Assembly (NCBI GenBank): GCA_963668175.1
Contig: OY764159.1
Location: forward strand, 3,360,001 to 3,424,000
Reading direction: 5' to 3'
Length of the DNA: 64,000 bases
From: Syntrophales bacterium
GTDB lineage: Bacteria; Desulfobacterota; Syntrophia; Syntrophales; PHBD01
The notes beneath the pieces were generated by a model. That model was not told the DNA's origin. It searched no databases and saw only the letters and a list, made by a program, of their open reading frames with translations. Of this stretch, positions 26,449-45,448 are shown in pieces; the first letter of the stretch is position 1, and each line of letters begins with the position of its first letter. A program made the position numbers and the translations under genes.

Positions 26449-26479
26449 CAAAACGCGGCGGCGACTTATATTAAGGTTG

Positions 26480-26640
26480 AAAGGATCGCCACGATCCCGT
26501 TCATCCCCGGCGCGGAAAAAAGCCGGGGAGAGACTGCTTCGGGCCGGCGCACCTCCTGCCATCCCGGGCAGTCAGGCATTTTGATCCCGGGATTGGGAGC
26601 GATGGGAAGGTGGTTGACATCCGACCGTGGCGGTCCCTGA
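26480..26640 (+). ncRNA. Candidate structured small RNA, family not recognised
   Basis: TTGACA(26445)-N16-TATATT upstream; 11-bp closing stem 26483-26493 with 26626-26636; internal hairpins. Confidence 0.45.
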
Positions 26641-27179
26641 AAAAGATCGCTTTCGACGATCTTCGAGGGTTGGCGGACGCGGATATTGAAAAGGCCCCCT
26701 GCACCCTTCGTCGCGCGGCGCACCGTCACGATCGCCGCGCAAGGGCCGGGCCGGTCCGCCGGGCTCAACCCCGCCTAAGACGGGGCGAATTATTAAAGGT
26801 TATTGACGGTTTGCCGGGGCGTTCCCCTCCCGCCGTTGCGGACGGCCGGGGAAGGAACGGCAGCGACGATGGAAAATAATGGCTTGTTTCAACGGGCCGT
26901 TTCCCATTCGTCGTTTTTCCCGGCGTTTTTACAGCCGTTCTTGCCGGCGTTATTCCCGGCAAAACGGCGTTCACGGCTTATTGTACACCCTGAGGAATCA
27001 GGGGTTCTCTCAACCGCAACATCCTTTTCTGCCATGGGATGTCAATCTTCCGCTTGATCCGCGGGGCCTTCCCCCTTTGTGGTCCCGGCGTCGATGAAGG
27101 GTTGGAAGAGAGGTTGAGGGAATGCACTACTTGTGTTATTATAAAGTCGGTTCTTTGCCATAGACCCATCAAAACGAAT

Positions 27180-27534
27180 GGGGGCGTCACGGTTTCGACG
27201 GGGATAGTTGAAGCTGTAGAAGCGTACCGAGGTTCCTACAGGCCTCGTTAAACAGGTAGGAAAATCATAATCGCAAACGATTACGAATACGCCTTAGCCG
27301 CTTAGTCGGCTAACGTCCTCCCGGCTTTGTCCGTTGGGCCGGATGAGGGCGTCATTTAGACGGAATAACCGATTCCCCTCGCCTGGCGGGGATGAGGCGA
27401 AAACCTTACAGGCTAGCGACGGTTGAATCCTGCCCCTGGGAGCCTTCCGGAGCGAAATTAAATCAGGGAATACGTACGTAGAAACTGCAGTGGAATGTTT
27501 TCGGACGCGGGTTCGACTCCCGCCGCCTCCACCA
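27180..27534 (+). ncRNA. ssrA: tmRNA
   Basis: GGGGGCG/CGCCTCC-ACCA acceptor stem with G3-U, GGTTCGACTCC T-arm, tag ANDYEYALAA* at 27273-27305. Confidence 0.97.
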
Positions 27535-27540
27535 TAATAC

Positions 27541-28788
27541 TTAATTATTATCAGCAATTACATTATTATTTTCTACCGCAACGCTACCGCAATTTTCCAT
27601 GCCCTGCTGGTGTGGCATCTGATAACCGGGTCGCCGCATACTCAACACCTGCCCTATCCTTTTTGACGTCCTCTTTGCGTATCGTTTGGTCATCTCTGAT
27701 GTTTTATGCCTTAAAACGGCTTGCACAAAGGACTCATCTTTTCCTTCATCGAGCAGTTGGCACCCCAACGAGTGTCGGACGGCATTGTATAGTTTAATTC
27801 TTATTCCTGCTTTTCCACAGGCCTCATGCCATACCTTATTAAGATTCTTGTTTGTATAGGGCTTTCCATCTTCTCGGACGAATAGAAACGGTCCTGTGTG
27901 TTTTGGCAGGTTATCAAGAATCTCCTTTGCATACGGTGTTAGTTCCAGCTCTCCCACTTCGCCCGTTTTTGTCTTTTCATTTAGATCATTGTCCGAAAAG
28001 GCACGTTTAATATAAACTTTCCCATTTTTCACAGCGTCTTTTTTGATTGCTCGGACTTCTCCAATCCTAGGTCCATATTCCATTGCAAATCGGAAGATAT
28101 AAACATCCCTTGTCGGGACATGGGATAGCACGAGCTCTTGCTGTTCCATGGTCAGGTATTCAATCTCCGATGGTTTCGGCATACTCATCTTCGGAAAAGG
28201 GGGAACTCGTTTGATCTCTTCATTTGAGAAAGCCCACCTTACCATTGTTTTTAAGGCACCGAGTTTATTGTACGCGCCTTTTTCTTCTAACTTATTTTTA
28301 AGAAATTGTTGATATAAAACCAGCTCGGCTTTCCGAAATTTTCTAATATCCTTATCGGCTCCGAAATAGGGGATTGCATAATTGACGATACAAGTTTTGT
28401 AATCACGTTTGCATTTCTTGCCAGCGTCGCATTGTACAAGCCAAGTCTTGTAATATTCGCCTAGACTTAGTGGATTGCTGGGACGGAATGTACGTGGGTC
28501 AAATGCTTCCGGATCTCTATCGATATCTTCCTGAATGGCGGCCAGGAGCTTCTTGCCGTTTTCGTAATGTTTGATCGGGTGCCATTGGCCCTGAATGAGT
28601 ACCGACCAAAACTTTTCGATGGTACCCTTCCAATACAACTGGACAAAAAAGCGATTACCGTGCTTTTGGACGGTCCCGCGAGTAAAACCCATGACATGCC
28701 CTCCAGCTGGGTTTATACGGATATTATCCGAAACTGTCAAGGCCTTGGGCTGCTCTCTGACTTCCCCTGTCGATTGAATCGGCTCCAT
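27541..28788 (-). CDS. Tyrosine recombinase / phage-type integrase
   Basis: GPRIGE (R), KTG (K), YNAVRHS, LRH...TKRY (H, Y); start could be the later MGFTRG. Confidence 0.9.
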   Translation of the reverse strand: MEPIQSTGEVREQPKALTVSDNIRINPAGGHVMGFTRGTVQKHGNRFFVQLYWKGTIEKFWSVLIQGQWHPIKHYENGKKLLAAIQEDIDRDPEAFDPRTFRPSNPLSLGEYYKTWLVQCDAGKKCKRDYKTCIVNYAIPYFGADKDIRKFRKAELVLYQQFLKNKLEEKGAYNKLGALKTMVRWAFSNEEIKRVPPFPKMSMPKPSEIEYLTMEQQELVLSHVPTRDVYIFRFAMEYGPRIGEVRAIKKDAVKNGKVYIKRAFSDNDLNEKTKTGEVGELELTPYAKEILDNLPKHTGPFLFVREDGKPYTNKNLNKVWHEACGKAGIRIKLYNAVRHSLGCQLLDEGKDESFVQAVLRHKTSEMTKRYAKRTSKRIGQVLSMRRPGYQMPHQQGMENCGSVAVENNNVIADNN

Positions 28789-28860
28789 TAATTTATCCCT
28801 CTACCCATATATCCACGGGGTGTCGCCCTCTGGAGGCAAAAAAAGTGAACTTTTTTTCAT

Positions 28861-29030
28861 ATAATTTTTTTTTAAGTGTGATTTTGGACAGAAAGACGAG
28901 TTAAAAATTTTTTAAGTGGCTTTTTGCAGGATAATTATTTTTTAAGTGCGCTTTTGGGCCAAAAGTCGATTTAAATATTTTTTATCTGACGTTTTTGCGT
29001 TTTTTGAAAAATTAAGTGGCGTTTTTGCGA
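28861..29030. repeat. AT-rich imperfect 70-bp tandem repeat with phased TTAAGTG boxes
   Basis: Boxes at 28872, 28912, 28942, 28982 (TTATCTG) and 29012. Confidence 0.8.
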
Positions 29031-29061
29031 ATAATGAAAATGGGCTCTTAAGGGCCGTTTT

Positions 29062-29090
29062 GTGACACGCATAATATAGTTTATTATACT
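29062..29090 (+). promoter_or_regulatory. Sigma70-like promoter facing the non-coding region
   Basis: GTGACA(29062-29067)-N17-TATACT(29085-29090). Confidence 0.65.
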
Positions 29091-29096
29091 TACTAG

Positions 29097-31050
29097 CTGT
29101 GTGACACCTCAGAACCCCCTTTCATCCCCTTCGATGATGCCCATCATCCCTGGGGATGACACCCGTCTTCGTCTCCCCTCAAGTTCGACCCATAGCCTCC
29201 GTTCCTACCGCCCCTCCGGGTCAGTTTTGCCGGTACGGTCGGCTGCCCTCTGCCTTGGCAGTCCGGTCAGCAGTCCGACCCCTGGTCTTTACCTCAGATC
29301 CGACACAAGCCCTACTCAGCTCCGACCCCACCACTCCCCTGCCCACCCCCAGGGTTTAAGGCTCGCCGCCTCTGGTTCGACCCGGGGTTTGGGGCGCTGA
29401 CAGGCAAGCGGGAGCGGCCTTTTGAAGCGCCTTAGGATGCTCCCCGCCCGGCGGGATAGCCGGGCTCGTCTTGGACAGCCTGCCGGATGGCTCCATAACC
29501 ACCGGAGGTCACAAACCGGAGGTGCCTGATTTCAGGTCCGATCTCAGGTCCGACTACAGGGCGAACAGGTCCTGAAGCCACCAAGGGTGGTCGAATGGAT
29601 CTTGAGCGCCGGATGGGCGACGACCGGAAAAGGCCTGCGAAGCCTAAGGGCAGCCCACAAGGCAACCTGAGGTGAAGCTGGCCCCGAGGGAGGAGCTAGC
29701 GAGACCGGAAGGCGCTTGAGGGGGCCCTGGCGGCTCAGCCGCAGGCTTAGCCAAAGGGACCCGGAAAGCGCCTGGATGTCGGAAGCGGACGGGGATAATG
29801 CTTCTCAGACCGACAGCATGGCGGATGCTCCATAACCGCCGCAGGCGCCTGTAAAACACAGAAACTCCAGTCCGACACCTGTGCCCCTGGCCAGGTCGTG
29901 ACCAGCACCTCGGCGAAGTTAGCCTCGGGAATCGTCATCAGAACCTCGCCGAAGTGAACCGGACGGCTTGGGTGACTGCCTGGTCTCAGACCGACCCGGC
30001 CTGCATGTCTGCCTGCACACTGGCAGCATGTCTGGCCAACTAGCTCAGCTCCGACAGCCACTCTCGCCGGACTGGGAGAGGTGTAACCTCGGATAGCCGG
30101 GCGAGGAACGGGAGAAGTACCGGACCTGAGAGGTAGGGGTGCCAGCGCAGCGAACCCAGGGGCGAAGGTCCAGGACTTCGGGCTGGGGGGGTTGGCCTGC
30201 AGAATCGAGGTGCAGCCGAGGTGAGGCAGGCCGTGTCGAAGGCCCCCTGGATTGAGATTCGACACTGTCTCAGGCAATCTCAGGGTGACACACACTCAGG
30301 TCGATTTCAGGTCCGACTCCAGGTTTCAGGCGGCGCTGGCGGGGACAGAAACCTGATGCCTGATCTCAGGTCCGATCTCAGGTCCGACCCACCAGCCCGG
30401 CGAAGTGCTCCGCCTCGATCGCGGATCAAGATCTACGATCGGGATCGGCGATTGACAGGAGCTCGGAGACCGGTCAGGCCTGCCGGAGGGATAACACCCT
30501 CAGGTCCGACACGAGCCGAGGGGTGGCCACCGACAAGTATTGCGAGTCCTGGCCGGGAAGGTAACATAACGATGTGTTATGTTTAGCTGAGAGAGGGCAT
30601 CTTGCCGTTACCGGATCTGCCAGCGGCAGCAAGACATGTTGGATAAGGCGCCTTATCTGACATGCCGAATGAAGCGACTTCCCGCATGGCGAGCAAATTG
30701 CCCAGGGGCACGCACATTTTCAGAGTCCAGGGTGCCCCCCGCCCCACTGCCCCAACAAACGACACCCCGAGGCGATCGCTGTACCCACCACCCACCAGCA
30801 TGGCGAAGGGATTCCGGCCCCTTACGTGGCAACAGGAAGCATGGGGGCTCGCTCTGCACGCCCCCCTCGCACCGGCTTGCCACGTTAGTCCGCCCGGCGC
30901 ACTTGCAGTCCCGATACACGAGGGCGGCAGGGTCTGCCAGCGTGGCGGAAGGCCGCCGGCCGCGGCCGGCGCCGGGAGTGCCCGGCGGCGTTGCCGTGAC
31001 CAGGCCGGACCAGGACCGATGCGGGAAACGCAGAGAAAAGCCGGGATGCA
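29097..31050 (+). ncRNA. Candidate ~2-kb structured non-coding RNA or element
   Basis: No credible ORF, dense hairpins with mostly plus-strand G-U pairs, repeated CTCAGGTCCGAC motif, upstream promoter. Confidence 0.45.
29178..30510 (+). repeat. Dispersed direct repeat CTCAGGTCCGAC, about 15 copies
   Basis: Exact copies at 29543, 30377 and 30499; variants listed in findings. Confidence 0.88.
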
Positions 31051-31614
31051 GTGGGTGTGATGTGTGTATGTGTATTAATAAGTATATAAATATATTAACT
31101 AATTCAACTAAGATATAAAGAGAGAAAAGATATATATAGACCCTGAAGACGGCCCTGAAAAGGGCGGGGTGGTCGAACGCACGGATTGGGAAAACGAGGA
31201 CAAGCGTGTGACACCGTGAGCACGACCTCATGCTGACGGAAATCGCCCACTTGTGGGGGCATGGCCGAACGCACGGAAGGGGAATTGAGACGCGGTCGTC
31301 ATCCGTACCGGGAGGAATTCAGATGTGACCCGGGGGGGATCTTTTGAGAAAATTCACCTCTCTCGAAACTCCTAGGCGGAAGATTTATGGATGAAACATG
31401 CAATCTTGGGAGGGATATTTTCCCGGTGAGAGAGGTAATCCAATTCTTCCTGTAATCAAGATCGTCCCTTTAGACATTGACGTTTAACAGTAAGGTTGGT
31501 TATCCATAATCTTCGATAAAGGTTTTGTTTAGATTTAATCATCTTGATCTCAGAATCAAAGTATGTTAACCGAAGTTGTAAATATGATCCTTACAAGCTC
31601 TTTCATAGTGAATA

Positions 31615-31710
31615 ATTTTGGTGACCCCGAGGAGGAGTAGAATAGGGAATCCCGTGTGAATCGGGAGCGGACCCGCCATTGCAAGCAGCGACGAAACCCT
31701 GCTAAGAGCT
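31615..31710 (+). promoter_or_regulatory. Cobalamin riboswitch-like element, apparently 5' half only
   Basis: GGTG...AATAGGGAA-TCCCG-TGTGAAT-CGGGA-GCGGACCCGCC-ATTGCAA; no 3' B12 box seen. Confidence 0.55.
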
Positions 31711-31786
31711 GGATGTCGGGGAACGGTTTCAAACCCCGAGTTTGAATAGTCTGCGATGAGCATACAAAATCCCCGAGGAGACGATT

Positions 31787-32041
31787 ATGGCGAAATTATT
31801 CGTTTTTCACAGTGGGAATCCCTCTTGAATGTCCTGTAGAAAGGCTATCGGGGTAGCCGAGGCAATGAAGAAGAAGTTTTCTGAGAAACTGGAACTGCTG
31901 ATTTACACAATGGATTCAAAAGAAGCGGAACCTTATCATTTCAGAAGCGCGACCAATGTTCTGCTGGATAAAGAACTCATACCGATTGACATAGCAACGA
32001 ACAAAGACAAAATGGATGCGTTTCTGTCCTCGAGACTGTGA
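31787..32041 (+). CDS. Putative selenoprotein with UxxC motif (thioredoxin-like), 84 aa
   Basis: GAGGAG RBS, ATG 31787, in-frame TGA 31826-31828 giving U-M-S-C, downstream SECIS-like hairpin. Confidence 0.78.
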
Positions 32042-32214
32042 GAGCATATTTTGACGAACACAATGCTGCTAAGAAGCAATAAAATCTTCCTACCCCTCCG
32101 AATATATAATACGTAAAGTAAGAGCAACGCGGCTCGAAGGTACGCCGTATCGGCTGCACAGGTACGTTAGGTAGCATTACGCTAGAATATAATCGATAAT
32201 GCTGATCCATCGTC

Positions 32215-33366
32215 TTAGAGAGCAAGCACCGAGAATACTACACCGACGAGTATGATCCAGTGAAGCTCGACTCCGAAAAGCAGAGTGGCAAAAGCGCCAC
32301 TGGACAAAAATATGCGGGGAAGGTCCCATGAGATGTTCAGGGCAAAGCGTATGGTCACGGACAAGAGCAGCCCTACGAAGGAATATAGCACTCCCCTAAG
32401 CGCTCGATTGAAATACGGAGAATGACTCAGCCTGTCATAATAGGGAACCATTGTTACCAACATAAGGAATGACGGGAGAAAGATGAAAATCGTCGCTATG
32501 ATCGCACCCGCGATACCGTCGCGGAGATAGCCGATGAACGTTGCTGTGATGACGATAGGCCCAGGGGTGATCTGGCCGAGAGCGATGCCATTCAGAAAAG
32601 TGAGTCCATCCATCCAGTCATGCCTGTGAACAACTTCGTTAAACATGAGCGGTAGAGAAGAAAACCCCCCGCCGAAAGCGAACAGGTCAATTCTAGCCAT
32701 CAAGAAAGCCAGATCGAACCATTCTCTTCGCATCAGAAATAGCAGAGCGAATGCCGTTGTCAGAGATGACAGAAGGTACACTAGAATCTTAGGGTCGTAC
32801 GATTTCCTCTTCGATACAACCGCAACGGCTGCCGGTTGTTGACTGTCGAAACCGAAGCCGCAGAGGGCTGCGATGAGGATAACGAGGATGGGATGGATTC
32901 CGAAACCAAACATCGAGGCAGCCAAAAGAGCGATGATCGCACCCTGCCAATTCGTCAGCCAACTCCTGCCGAACGTAAACGTTGCATGAGCTACGATGGC
33001 TACCACTATGGCCTGAAGACCGTTGAAACATGAGACGGTTACAGGTAATGTCCGTGTATGCATATACAGGGCAGAAAGAGCCATCATGATCAGGAAGGCT
33101 GGCAGACCGAAGCCGATGAAACTGGCAGCTGCTCCCCTCAGACCGTTAGATTGCAGCCCCACATAGGCCGTAACTTGCATGGCCGTGGCACCAGGAATCA
33201 TCTGGCAGAGAGTCACACCAGATCTGAAGGTCGAATCCTCCAGCCATTGTTTCTTCTCAACGACCATCGTGCGGATGTGAGCGATCATGGCCGGGCCGCC
33301 GAAAGCCGTCAAGCCGAGCCGGAAGAATGACAGAAAGAGGTTCCTTACCGTTGGCGTTTCGTTCAT
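32215..33366 (-). CDS. chrA: Chromate efflux transporter (long-chain CHR)
   Basis: FF.LG..AFGGP, Q.IPG, second FGGG and ITPGP repeat. Confidence 0.92.
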   Translation of the reverse strand: MNETPTVRNLFLSFFRLGLTAFGGPAMIAHIRTMVVEKKQWLEDSTFRSGVTLCQMIPGATAMQVTAYVGLQSNGLRGAAASFIGFGLPAFLIMMALSALYMHTRTLPVTVSCFNGLQAIVVAIVAHATFTFGRSWLTNWQGAIIALLAASMFGFGIHPILVILIAALCGFGFDSQQPAAVAVVSKRKSYDPKILVYLLSSLTTAFALLFLMRREWFDLAFLMARIDLFAFGGGFSSLPLMFNEVVHRHDWMDGLTFLNGIALGQITPGPIVITATFIGYLRDGIAGAIIATIFIFLPSFLMLVTMVPYYDRLSHSPYFNRALRGVLYSFVGLLLSVTIRFALNISWDLPRIFLSSGAFATLLFGVELHWIILVGVVFSVLAL

Positions 33367-33376
33367 CGATCGTCGC

Positions 33377-34615
33377 TTACAGTCTCCGGAGAATATCGAC
33401 GGGCTTCATCTTTTCCATCCGCCGGCCCATGAAATAACTTGCCAGCCAGCCCGCAGCAAGCGAAAGAGCCAGAGAAGCGGCCGTGAGACCGGCGGAGAAG
33501 CTGACCGGCAGACGGACTGTCTTCGCCACGGTGCCGGCCTCCTTAGCGAAAGCCGGTGTGAGATTCACCTCCCACGGCGTGGAAACGGGAATGGAAAGAT
33601 AGCCTAAGCTGTAGGAAATCAGATAACCCGCCAGAATGCCGACGATACCCCCGATAATGGATTGCAGGAAGACTTCACCCATGAGCTGTTTTTGAACATC
33701 GGAGCCCGTCCAGCCAACGGCCTTCAGAACGCCGATCTCCTGGGAGCGCTCGACCAAGTTTCCGAGCATGGTCTTGATGATCAGGAAAACCGCGCCGCAA
33801 AGGGCCACGAGAGATACGACCAGGGAAAACTGATCGGATATCCGCGAGACGCCGCCCATAACCTCTAAAAAGGAATCGGAGCTGGTCACGGTGAAACCGG
33901 GAAGCATCCGCAGAATGTCTTTCTTGGTCTGATTCAGAAGCGATGGATTCTTAAGACGCAGATAGACGATATTCACGCTCCCGGCACCATTCTCCAGGAG
34001 CGATTGGGCATCAGCCAGGGATAAATAGACGTTCGATGAAGCAATCTGCGAGCCCTCTTTTATCTCCAACAGGCCCACAATTTTAAATACATGGCCAGCA
34101 ATCGTCAGCGAATCTCCCAGCTGGCTGTTATGGAACTTGGCGTAGTGTTTTTCCAGAACGGCCTCGCCTTCTCTTTCAGGAAAACGCCCCTTGGCAAGCC
34201 AGTCTTTCACTTTGACGGGCCCCAGGCTCGGTTGTGTCAGGTCCACGCCCATGATTGTCCGGAAACCTCCCCGGTCGAACTCCCACAGGAGCAACGATCC
34301 GGCAATTCCCTCTGTGCCGGAAAGGCCTCGCAGCTTATCGATATCCTGGGAAGCCAGAAGCTGGCTGGAGAACGGCACTCTTACCCCGCGCATAGTCGGG
34401 GCGGGCTGGGTGGAGTCTGCCGTGCGCTTTTCCGGCCGCTGGATGACAAGATCGGCTCCCAGATTCTTGAAAGGCAGGCTGACTGCCTCCTGATAGGCGG
34501 TGGAAACAGCGTTAATGGACACGAACAGGGCTATCCCGACCGCGATGCCAAGCACGTTGACCAACGTCCGATGGCGATGATGACGAAGCTCGTTCAGTAT
34601 GTATCGATAATGCAT
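33377..34615 (-). CDS. MacB/FtsX-type ABC permease
   Basis: GIAVG, ER..EIGVLKAVGW, 4-TM layout. Confidence 0.9.
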   Translation of the reverse strand: MHYRYILNELRHHRHRTLVNVLGIAVGIALFVSINAVSTAYQEAVSLPFKNLGADLVIQRPEKRTADSTQPAPTMRGVRVPFSSQLLASQDIDKLRGLSGTEGIAGSLLLWEFDRGGFRTIMGVDLTQPSLGPVKVKDWLAKGRFPEREGEAVLEKHYAKFHNSQLGDSLTIAGHVFKIVGLLEIKEGSQIASSNVYLSLADAQSLLENGAGSVNIVYLRLKNPSLLNQTKKDILRMLPGFTVTSSDSFLEVMGGVSRISDQFSLVVSLVALCGAVFLIIKTMLGNLVERSQEIGVLKAVGWTGSDVQKQLMGEVFLQSIIGGIVGILAGYLISYSLGYLSIPVSTPWEVNLTPAFAKEAGTVAKTVRLPVSFSAGLTAASLALSLAAGWLASYFMGRRMEKMKPVDILRRL

Positions 34616-34622
34616 GGTCTCC

Positions 34623-35030
34623 TCATTTCTTGCGGGTTGCCTGATCCAGGGCTTTTCTAAGATCGGCCATCGTCCACTTGCCCTGGAAGAAAGCAGGGCC
34701 TGAGCCGGACGGGAAACCGGTGAAATTGATTTCCTTTCCCTTCAGGGGAAAGGACGATTTGCCGTCGATCCAGATGACCAGGGGCACGTGCTGACGGATG
34801 CCTTTTCGGGCCATGAAATTCTCCCCCTCGGGCGTATCGAAATCATACCACGATGCATTAACCTTATTTCCATATCCGGCCAAAACGGTCTTAATGTCCT
34901 TGATGGTGGACATAAGCGGACCGTGGTTCATATAGAGAATTTCAACGTTCGTGCCTTGCGCCGCACCGGCTGTTAAGGGCAAGCAAACGACGGCCAGCAT
35001 TAATGCACAGAACAAAACGATCTTCTTCAT
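34623..35030 (-). CDS. Secreted hypothetical protein
   Basis: Signal peptide; translationally coupled within the ABC operon. Confidence 0.75.
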   Translation of the reverse strand: MKKIVLFCALMLAVVCLPLTAGAAQGTNVEILYMNHGPLMSTIKDIKTVLAGYGNKVNASWYDFDTPEGENFMARKGIRQHVPLVIWIDGKSSFPLKGKEINFTGFPSGSGPAFFQGKWTMADLRKALDQATRKK

Positions 35031-42168: not shown

Positions 42169-42234
42169 AACAACGACTCTCCTTGTGTGATGAACTCCCG
42201 CGCCGTCAATCTGAAACATGACGTCGCGATATAC

Positions 42235-42280
42235 GAAGGAGTCATCAGCTCAAGGAGCAGTTAAGGTGGACCCCATCACC
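42235..42280 (-). promoter_or_regulatory. Fluoride riboswitch (crcB motif), downstream aptamer of a tandem pair
   Basis: GGTGATGGGGTCCACC-TTAACT-GCTC-ctt-GAGC-TGATGACTCCT. Confidence 0.88.
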
Positions 42281-42284
42281 GGTT

Positions 42285-42329
42285 CAGGCGTCATCAGTCC
42301 CAGGGACATTGCTGGCGGACGCCATCGCC
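42285..42329 (-). promoter_or_regulatory. Fluoride riboswitch (crcB motif), upstream aptamer of a tandem pair
   Basis: GGCGATGGCGTCCGCC-AGCAAT-GTCC-ctg-GGAC-TGATGACGCCT; GGCGTC/GACGCC pseudoknot. Confidence 0.85.
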
Positions 42330-45309: not shown

Positions 45310-45337
45310 AAAAAAAACTCCTTCAGATCGTCTCTGT

Positions 45338-45412
45338 CAGGAGTTATCATCCCTTGATGTAGGCCTTAATGCAGGCCTTGCTGCGGGCGGTTATTAGGTG
45401 AACTCCATCACC
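45338..45412 (-). promoter_or_regulatory. Fluoride riboswitch (crcB motif)
   Basis: GGTGATGGAGTTCACC-TAATAACCG...GATGATAACTCCT; GGAGTT/AACTCC pseudoknot. Confidence 0.88.
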
Positions 45413-45419
45413 TTGTTTT

Positions 45420-45448
45420 TTTATATTTATCTTAATCCTTTTTGTCAA
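45420..45448 (-). promoter_or_regulatory. Sigma70-like promoter of the fluoride operon
   Basis: TTGACA-N17-TATAAA ending 7 nt before the aptamer. Confidence 0.75.

Follow-up and report, generated by a model that had tools for sequence, protein, structure and literature searches.

What is encoded, if anything, by 2 kb of GC-rich DNA that lies beside an integrase gene at a transfer-messenger RNA (tmRNA) integration site, faces a promoter-like sequence and contains no recognisable protein gene? This question is raised by a locus of a Syntrophales bacterium that we analysed within a window of 64 kb (G000:C1:3360001-3424000, from a complete 4.57-Mb genome, 55.8% GC; all positions below follow the numbering of this window unless a contig is named). 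A first-pass annotation of the same DNA had proposed that this segment, hereafter called the block, specifies a large structured RNA that forms the core module of a genomic island together with the integrase. Here, we report that the block holds an array of a 12-14-nucleotide (nt) motif that is enriched, strand-exclusive and sharply bounded, and the sharp bounds and strand exclusivity of this motif are the main argument for a function. Our best guess, which we hold tentatively, is that the block gives rise to a promoter-driven non-coding RNA acting via its repeated binding motif; its serious rivals are an array of sites bound as DNA and a decaying remnant.

A one-strand motif array in a block of non-coding DNA

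The array motif, YTCAGGTCCGAC(M)C, is represented by 17 listed instances, 13 of them robust, all of which lie on the + strand within 1.34 kb. When the instances are anchored on YCGAY and their flanks aligned, the consensus reads (C)TCAGGT-CCGAC-(A/C)C, and no conservation is seen past ~14 nt. In leave-one-out scoring, 13 of the 17 reach at least 11 bits, a score that is otherwise attained in the window by two + strand and two - strand sites outside the block and by one - strand site inside it. A word search points the same way: with at most one mismatch, CAGGTCCGAC has 14 matches in the window, nine of which fall at 29295-30510, all on the + strand, when shuffled sequence yields 4.7 ± 2.06 matches and none of 100 shuffles reached 14; likewise, 6 of the genome's 15 + strand copies of CAGGTCCGA fall in the block. 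In a scan for exact 8-mers, ~18 other overlapping windows of 1.5 kb surpass the block in the copy number of some 8-mer; exact-word repetition alone is thus not what sets it apart. The copies are irregularly spaced, 12-260 nt apart with two tandem pairs at 12 nt, and are spread over all three reading frames; as read from the alignment, the sites are not palindromic and form no full core sites. Judged from the sequence, a sharp core of ~14 nt within random flanks looks like the outcome of selection on the site, not of the even decay of duplicated units. The first-pass annotation had missed this array, as well as the AT-rich repeats at 28860-29030 that are described below. It had rightly set aside a CRISPR array, a candidate that we also rejected: Tandem Repeats Finder detects two-copy 12-nt tandems only (period 12), there are no regular 24-48-nt repeats, and the motif is short (12-14 nt) and irregularly spaced.

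Part of the array arose by segmental duplication, since self-BLAST finds a 48-nt module holding a tandem motif pair and a 35-nt module each present twice; according to our own reading of the sequence, the exchange of a C-G for a G-C pair lets both copies of the latter adopt one and the same small hairpin. GGTYCGAC is common to the motif and to the T arm of the neighbouring tmRNA, whose site scores 8.4 bits and ranks 3044 of 9.1 million positions. We considered the motif as a copy of this arm and rejected the idea, as the likeness is generic (GGTYCGA) and T arms of tRNAs score up to 12.2 bits; it may be kept as a lead only. The array and the features around it are as follows:

27180-27534, + strand: tmRNA gene (ssrA), the integration target (Rfam RF00023, 218 bits)
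27541-28788, - strand: tyrosine recombinase (integrase) gene, 415 amino acids (aa), 43% GC (PF00589, E 3.1e-16)
28843-29040, + strand: AT-rich spacer (33% GC) separating the promoter-like site from the start of the integrase gene; ~5 direct repeats (families D2 and D8)
29062-29090, + strand: promoter-like GTGACA-N17-TATACT, sigma-70-like, 10 of 12 consensus positions, directed into the GC-rich block
29100-31050, + strand: GC-rich block, 59-71% GC, no coding signal
29177-30513, + strand: motif array, 17 instances
29474-29508, + strand: 35-nt module with conserved GCTCCATAACC, copy at 29812-29845, 86% (family D14)
29507-29554, + strand: 48-nt module with the tandem motif pair, copy at 30343-30388, 87.5% identical (family D1)
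30553-30690, + strand: structured element of 140 nt resembling a miniature inverted-repeat transposable element (MITE), with homologous copies in genomes G029, G042, G131 and G244
30900-31050, + strand: very GC-rich block end, up to 71-73% GC, with stable local hairpins (I5, D20)
31055-31140, no strand assigned: AT-rich GT-repeat right flank, GTGTGATGTGTGTATGTGT followed by TATA-rich sequence
31163-31284, + strand: two 30-nt direct repeats, GG..GGTCGAACGCACGGA..GGGAA, 80% identity, 92 nt apart (family D7)

As far as the tools used show, the block is free of coding sequence and no decayed gene can be recognised in it, which agrees with the earlier description of ~2 kb free of protein genes next to the ssrA-site integrase. 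Codon usage was scored as log-odds, with the long open reading frames (ORFs) of this genome as training set. On this crude scale, the six frames are alike over 29100-31000, when a single frame stands out clearly in the integrase, in chrA and in an ABC permease; of the 22 low-contrast runs that the genome contains, 28601-31100 is the longest. At E ≤ 1, Pfam yields no family for the seven longest ORFs of the block, nor for any of the six frames translated straight through with stops written as X. A frameshifted pseudogene, or a gene with an unusual code, might be suspected from the ORFs of at least 40 aa that tile the - strand, two of which (192 and 182 aa) lie in one frame. This frame has 12 stops in 677 codons and would encode a Pro/Arg/Gly/Ser-rich product, and the scarcity of stops on the - strand is accounted for by the T-poor + strand. 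When this one of the six frames was searched with HMMER against 1.84 billion representatives, the single match, over 28-32 aa, was P0001, a sequence of 71 aa (E 7e-7): it matches 29822-29905 only (84 nt; 28 aa, 89%), and the residues before this part have a weak counterpart (E 0.07) in a different frame, at 29952-30002. As the match is broken across frames, we read P0001 as an ORF probably called by chance on homologous non-coding DNA rather than as a gene. Taken with the lack of frame contrast and of Pfam families, with the motif copies in all three frames and with indels of 1-2 nt in a metagenomic relative (run X6, below), this makes a protein-coding origin, even a frameshifted one, highly improbable.

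Promoter-like site, flanks and predicted folding

The integrase gene ends 7 bases beyond the tmRNA gene, on the opposite strand, and ~270 nt of 33% GC DNA lie directly upstream of its start. This spacer contains the AT-rich repeats mentioned above, which are TTTTTTAAGTG-N3-TTTTG-like and number ~5 at 28860-29030, 30-41 nt apart; three of the genome's four + strand copies of TTTTTTAAGTG are found here, and the repeats may be candidate operator or bending sites. At the exact left edge of the block, directed inward, stands GTGACA-N17-TATACT, which is indeed divergent from the integrase as the first-pass annotation had noted, and which is one of three promoter-like sites in 28700-31800, to be compared with 1.3 ± 1.2 in shuffles. 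It is flanked by TGTGACAC at 29061, overlapping the -35 hexamer, and by GTGTGACAC at 29099. The latter has three copies in the genome, one of them distant and the two others (29099 and 31206) flanking the block 2107 nt apart. The block is GC-richer than the integrase, as had been claimed (0.59-0.71 over 29100-31049 against 0.40-0.47), so that the two are unlike in composition (63% GC for the 2-kb block, 43% for the integrase). Its + strand is purine-rich after an initial 300 nt of C-rich sequence.

On the right, non-coding DNA extends ~450 nt past the AT-rich flank, up to a cobalamin riboswitch at 31602; no plausible small ORF was found in 31050-31830, and the GTGTGACAC box at 31206 sits between the two 30-nt direct repeats. 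Block and AT-rich flanks together amount to 2.8 kb without coding signal. This arrangement is not an assembly artefact, since an independent contig of run X1 spans 27508-35000 with zero differences. A cluster of GATC at 30361 (seven in 120 nt) is the genome maximum, in a genome where many sites have six and where GATC is over-represented throughout.

Around this region, the cobalamin riboswitch (31602-31720, + strand) is followed only by a 70-aa ORF (31829-32041, + strand) without Pfam family. Two fluoride riboswitches (42229-42289 and 45331-45421, both on the - strand) precede a Na+/H+ exchanger gene and a pair formed by a dynamin-like GTPase and enolase. On the other side of the tmRNA gene, the smpB-ssrA spacer (26450-27180) is ~700 nt of 58-64% GC DNA without coding contrast, which is unusually long for this position.

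With regard to structure, every stem named by the first-pass annotation is present: 29122-29139/29142-29159 (18 nt, 83%), GCCCGGC/GCCGGGC at 29446-29465, a GATC-rich stem at 30411-30450, AACATAAC/GTTATGTT at 30563-30583 and the hairpin at 30635-30664 (19-nt arms, 89%). The accompanying statement that mismatches are compatible with G-U pairing holds for the 30635-30664 hairpin and fails for 29122-29159, where they are T-T, T-C and C-C. A pair of long-range arms, 29238-29264/29632-29658 (27 nt, 78%), is not significant (self-BLAST E 0.34). In 18 overlapping 200-nt windows folded against shuffles and averaged by hand, the mean z is about -1.26 on the + strand and -1.38 on the - strand, to be compared with -0.61 (standard deviation, sd, 1.21) in 45 GC-matched coding windows; the value of -6.1 at 30900 comes from a window that mixes GC-rich and AT-rich sequence. 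Over 975-nt halves, the + strand gives z of -2.77 and -3.30, with none of 20 shuffles as good in each case, and the - strand -1.17 and -2.03. Nine coding controls of the same length and GC content average -0.50 (sd 1.49), one of them at -4.3, and the + strand halves fold better than eight of the nine. The description of the block as hairpin-dense is thus weakly supported: the 200-nt windows are alike on both strands, and the predicted folding excess of the + strand is modest, suggestive and no more. The direction that had been proposed agrees with the halves, and the inward promoter-like site, the better + strand folding and the pairing of one small module (four G-U against no A-C cells in the window copy, below) together point to the + strand.

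The proposed checks against Rfam were run as well. At gathering thresholds, the whole window matches only tmRNA, the two fluoride riboswitches and the cobalamin riboswitch, and at E ≤ 5 the interval 28700-31500 gives one chance miRNA match (20.7 bits against a gathering score of 100). No family, HEARO included, is therefore recognised on the block, which is in line with the view that it is no OLE, GOLLD, ROOL or group I/II intron.

Relatives of the block, the small module and the island

Homologues of the block were searched in 61 relatives and in 339 genomes of the order, where only matches of up to 80 nt appeared among the best two to four candidates scored per genome, a setting that short similarities could escape; in plasmids and phages there was no match. 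The short matches fall in two groups, one being the small module at 30553-30690 and the other a 30-nt match (29480-29509) to the 5' end of a gene of genus g10, presumably the N-terminus of a glucan-phosphorylase-like protein, which we take as chance rather than homology. The only relative of the block itself comes from low-depth contigs of a sludge metagenome (run X6), which align to 29633-29996 (364 nt: 43 substitutions, 8 gap positions) and to 30495-30777 (283 nt: 24 substitutions, 11 gap positions); the indels measure 1, 2, 3 and 7 nt, and there are skips of 24 and 73 nt. Identity is ~87% (86-88%) in the block and, in contigs of similar depth, 86-87% in the smpB-ssrA spacer and 84-95% in flanking genes. 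If these contigs come from one organism, as we infer, the block evolves like other non-coding DNA and its conservation is no evidence of function. At their low depth, the contigs cover parts of the 2-kb block and none of the integrase, a hint that the block is not tied to the integrase.

The small module belongs to a family of its own. It consists of P1 (CGGGAAG/CTTCCCG), P2 (AACATAAC/GTTATGTT), P3 around CAGCGGCA, P4 (the hairpin at 30635-30664) and a 3' box, GCGACTTCCCGC, that does not vary. A pattern search finds six full copies in 5 of the 339 genomes, one or two per genome: the single copy of G000, two in G029 (L221 and L231) and one each in G042 (L225), G244 (L227) and G131 (L228), which represent four other families of the order. 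A shorter covariance model run on 151 genomes added no full copy, and Rfam has no match to the module. In a five-helix model, 87% of 263 cells are paired and 8 of 48 pairs changed on both sides, when none of 500 shuffles scored as high and slid controls were 33-43% paired. The family as a whole shows no strand preference (14 G-U against 15 A-C cells), to be distinguished from the window copy (four G-U on the + strand against no A-C). In G029, an outer helix, GTTTGCGGGAAG/CTTCCCGCAAAC, resembles terminal inverted repeats; P1 has 12 bp in the second G029 copy (G029b) and 7 bp in the window, helix 1 being 74% paired across the six copies. The copies occupy spacers beside a resistance-nodulation-division (RND) pump and a LysM gene or beside an RHS-repeat gene, or separate toxin-antitoxin cassettes in the neighbourhood of an IS200-like gene.

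We take the module to be a passenger of the block, a structured element that is rare and MITE-like, and it defines a previously uncatalogued element family in this order. Indeed, it resembles MITE/ERIC-like repeats in its size of 140-250 nt, its inverted-repeat ends, its hairpins with compensatory changes and its patchy spread over four families in contexts rich in mobile and toxin genes. It differs from MITEs in having one or two copies per genome rather than many, and no cognate transposase was identified for it. A homologue of the IS200-like gene of G029 was not found in G000 with that gene as query. Among viral contigs, the hairpin core GATAAGGYGCCTTATC occurs in 20 stretches, none of which has the flanking boxes of the module; by eye, these look like chance matches, mostly in apparent coding sequence, and we rejected them as copies. 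As for the cassette array of G029 (L198, G029:C22, 6650-12000), it comprises VapB-like and Xre-helix-turn-helix (HTH) + YefM + YoeB toxin-antitoxin cassettes, each followed by a repeat unit of ~450 nt that holds the module in antisense orientation, and it adjoins a 335-aa IS200-like Y1 transposase fused to an HTH domain.

The locus has the two hallmarks of a tmRNA-site genomic island: the integrase adjoins the 3' end of the tmRNA gene, and this end is repeated directly further downstream. The last 27 nt of the tmRNA recur at G000:C1:3471473-3471499 (96%, E 3.3e-5), ~84 kb downstream of ssrA and ~47 kb past the end of the window, which is the only credible repeat; within the window, no attR was found, the best match to the tmRNA 3' end being 29352-29372 (16 of 21 positions, E 2.4). 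Between ssrA and the repeat, the 84 kb hold enolase, sensor kinases and metabolic genes together with toxin-antitoxin and abortive-infection genes, and this mixture of housekeeping-like and defence-type content makes the repeat-bounded interval a composite. AbiEii, BrnT/BrnA and an S24 peptidase are found there, with a 1370-aa HTH protein near the far end. The integrase itself has only weak Xer-like matches in NCBIfam, far under the cut-offs ("integron integrase", 52.6 bits against 220). An integron was considered and rejected on account of these weak generic matches, the tmRNA 3' site, the non-palindromic motif and the lack of ORF cassettes. In another genome of the same family (L193, G005:C1:973006-976030), a 25-nt repeat of the tmRNA 3' end lies 1.6 kb downstream of ssrA and encloses one gene and no integrase; the gene, which carries an HPFxxGNGR motif, is presumably of Fic type.

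Homologues of the integrase that are 66-70% identical were found in G204, G176, G283 and G095, adjoining tmRNA genes in G204, G283 and G095, with no tmRNA found in the G176 locus. Beyond the integrase gene, these four loci share no similarity with the window, and the array motif does not recur in islands with related integrases. An ORF stands directly upstream of the integrase in G204, G176 and G283, as well as in the more distant G165 and G036, the contig of G095 ending just past the integrase. In four of these loci (L176, L178, L180 and L181, from G204, G283, G165 and G036), this ORF is of 270-390 aa; one belongs to DUF5131, one has a weak REP_ORF2-G2P (rolling-circle Rep) match and two are without family. 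Our locus resembles other tmRNA-site islands in its integrase abutting the tmRNA 3' end and in its 27-nt downstream repeat, and differs from them in that the integrase-adjacent segment is 2.8 kb of non-coding DNA devoid of xis, regulator and rep genes. Since related integrases occur without the block and the 84-kb interval is composite, the proposed "integrase plus RNA" core module is not supported; the difference in GC content and the X6 contigs that lack the integrase run in the same direction, and the search for similar blocks beside ssrA integrases, which the first-pass annotation had called for, came back empty among the related loci.

Readings of the block and what they would mean

In the reading that we favour, the working part of the 2-kb block would be its one-strand array of the 12-14-nt motif. 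The block would be transcribed rightward from GTGACA-N17-TATACT, divergently from the integrase gene, into a long non-coding RNA that would offer (C/U)UCAGGUCCGAC in many copies to a partner recognising this sequence, be it a protein or a second RNA. Such an RNA would act as a multivalent sponge or scaffold with local hairpins rather than through one compact "ornate" fold, and would carry one copy of the small MITE-like element as a passenger; the transcription, the length of the transcript, its binding partner and any link to the integrase are all putative. In its most explicit form, namely an island-borne, promoter-driven RNA of ~2 kb that uses at least 13 copies of the motif as a sponge or scaffold for a factor of the host or of the element, the proposal is possible and somewhat doubtful. 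Known sponge RNAs, whether of the CsrB/RsmZ type or the anti-small-RNA sponges of prophages, are ~100-400 nt long, display their motifs in hairpin loops and have known partners. The block would be akin to these RNAs, some of which are found on mobile elements, in depending on a short, often repeated motif and not on a global fold, and its 13-17 copies lie on the very strand that the promoter-like site would transcribe; it departs from them by its ~2 kb, its 12-14-nt motif, its putative transcription and the absence of enrichment in predicted loops.

Several observations weigh against this sponge or scaffold RNA, chief among them its C-rich 5' part, its neutral-looking divergence and the absence of a second example. 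Over the first 300 nt past the putative start, the sequence is rich in C and poor in G (GC skew -0.30); a stretch of this kind resembles a Rho loading site and could end an untranslated transcript early. No T-run terminator follows the block end, where a scan for terminator-like sites found none. The folding excess is modest, with one coding control folding at z -4.3, and in the predicted ensemble the motifs are not preferentially unpaired (per-site probability 0.09-0.60 against an overall mean of 0.34). In its only relative, the block is conserved no better than the smpB-ssrA spacer, with a neutral-looking divergence. In addition, no second example of the array was found in the scans made: none was seen for TCAGGTCCGA among the at least 121 GTDB species-representative stretches listed, with a maximum of two copies per locus, and a motif scan of JGI metagenomes gave 26 stretches with motif-length matches only.

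A rival reading is that the block is a non-functional, decaying remnant at a tmRNA integration hotspot, made of old island cargo, a MITE-like insertion and duplicated short repeats, and headed by a fortuitous or orphaned promoter match. The integrase lacks the upstream partner ORF of its relatives and shares nothing with them past its own gene, it lies ~20 points of GC away from the block, and the 84 kb up to the tmRNA 3' repeat are composite; in addition, the block is almost without relatives, folds globally only modestly better than controls, is conserved in X6 no better than another spacer and owes parts of its array to plain segmental duplication. However, even decay leaves no sharp 14-nt core within random flanks in at least 13 same-strand copies, no trace of a protein family is seen in six frames, and the block is part of the longest run devoid of coding signal, in a genome where such runs are few, when the deletion bias of bacteria should remove 2-3 kb of useless DNA; we regard such a remnant as conceivable, if on the unlikely side. 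Alternatively, the motif could act in duplex DNA, as an iteron-like array for replication or copy control, a centromere-like platform or a set of accessory sites for the recombinase, with AT-rich flanks that would unwind or bend. This would fit the direct repeats in one orientation, including two tandem pairs at 12 nt, the AT-rich sequence to the left (28843-29040, with its ~5 direct repeats) and to the right (31055-31140), the adjoining recombinase gene and the GGTYCGAC shared with the T arm of the tmRNA target. Iterons such as those of RK2 oriV and P1 incA are 17-22 bp long, are mostly regularly spaced and lie beside a rep gene. The block is like them in its same-orientation direct repeats by AT-rich regions in non-coding DNA of a mobile element, and unlike them in its 12-14-nt motif, spaced by 12-260 nt without helical phasing (by hand reckoning) instead of regular 17-22-bp repeats, and in its lack of a rep gene, no ORF with a family match being found in 28789-31829. 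As there is also no par or other candidate binding-protein gene nearby, as the T-arm likeness is generic, as islands with related integrases lack the motif and as the sites are neither palindromic nor arranged in full core sites, an array acting in DNA seems rather improbable to us.

The reading of the first-pass annotation, a single large compact RNA of ~2 kb similar to OLE, GOLLD or ROOL and larger than them, draws on a block that is non-coding, GC-rich with respect to its surroundings and preceded by a promoter-like site, on the + strand z values of -2.8 and -3.3, on the long-range arms 29238-29264/29632-29658 and on one module with covarying helices. It is weakened by the absence of an Rfam match even at E ≤ 5 and of homologues from which covariation of the whole block could be drawn, by arms that are not significant, by local z values that are alike on both strands and by a module family that has no strand preference and also occurs alone elsewhere; to our knowledge, an array of short motifs is not a described feature of OLE, GOLLD or ROOL. 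The block does resemble these RNAs in being large, GC-rich, non-coding and placed on mobile or prophage-like DNA near tRNA-type genes (PMC12286853). Of the three ornate classes analysed there, GOLLD is the largest and is reported often to exceed 800 nt, so that the block would be more than twice its size and a 2-kb member unprecedented; a fold of this kind is, in our view, quite improbable. In the terms of surveys of GC-rich intergenic regions (GC-IGR; PMC11109978), the block, with fewer than five representatives, would be ranked low as a candidate or left unnamed; of their categories, that of "mobile/repeat sequence candidates" suits the small module only.

Each of these outcomes would have a bearing on how such loci are understood. 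If the block is debris, then a tmRNA hotspot can retain 2-3 kb of DNA that is GC-rich and codes for nothing, and being GC-rich, hairpin-rich and free of ORFs is insufficient to call a structured RNA. If it acts in DNA, it would be an unusual dispersed array of binding sites without a neighbouring gene for the binding protein. If the sponge or scaffold RNA that we favour is real, it would be far larger than any described bacterial regulatory RNA and would have no relatives among 4227 Rfam families. In that case, were the block transcribed and its motif bound, sponge and scaffold RNAs would be extended, on mobile DNA, to a size and a number of sites otherwise known only from eukaryotic long non-coding RNAs.

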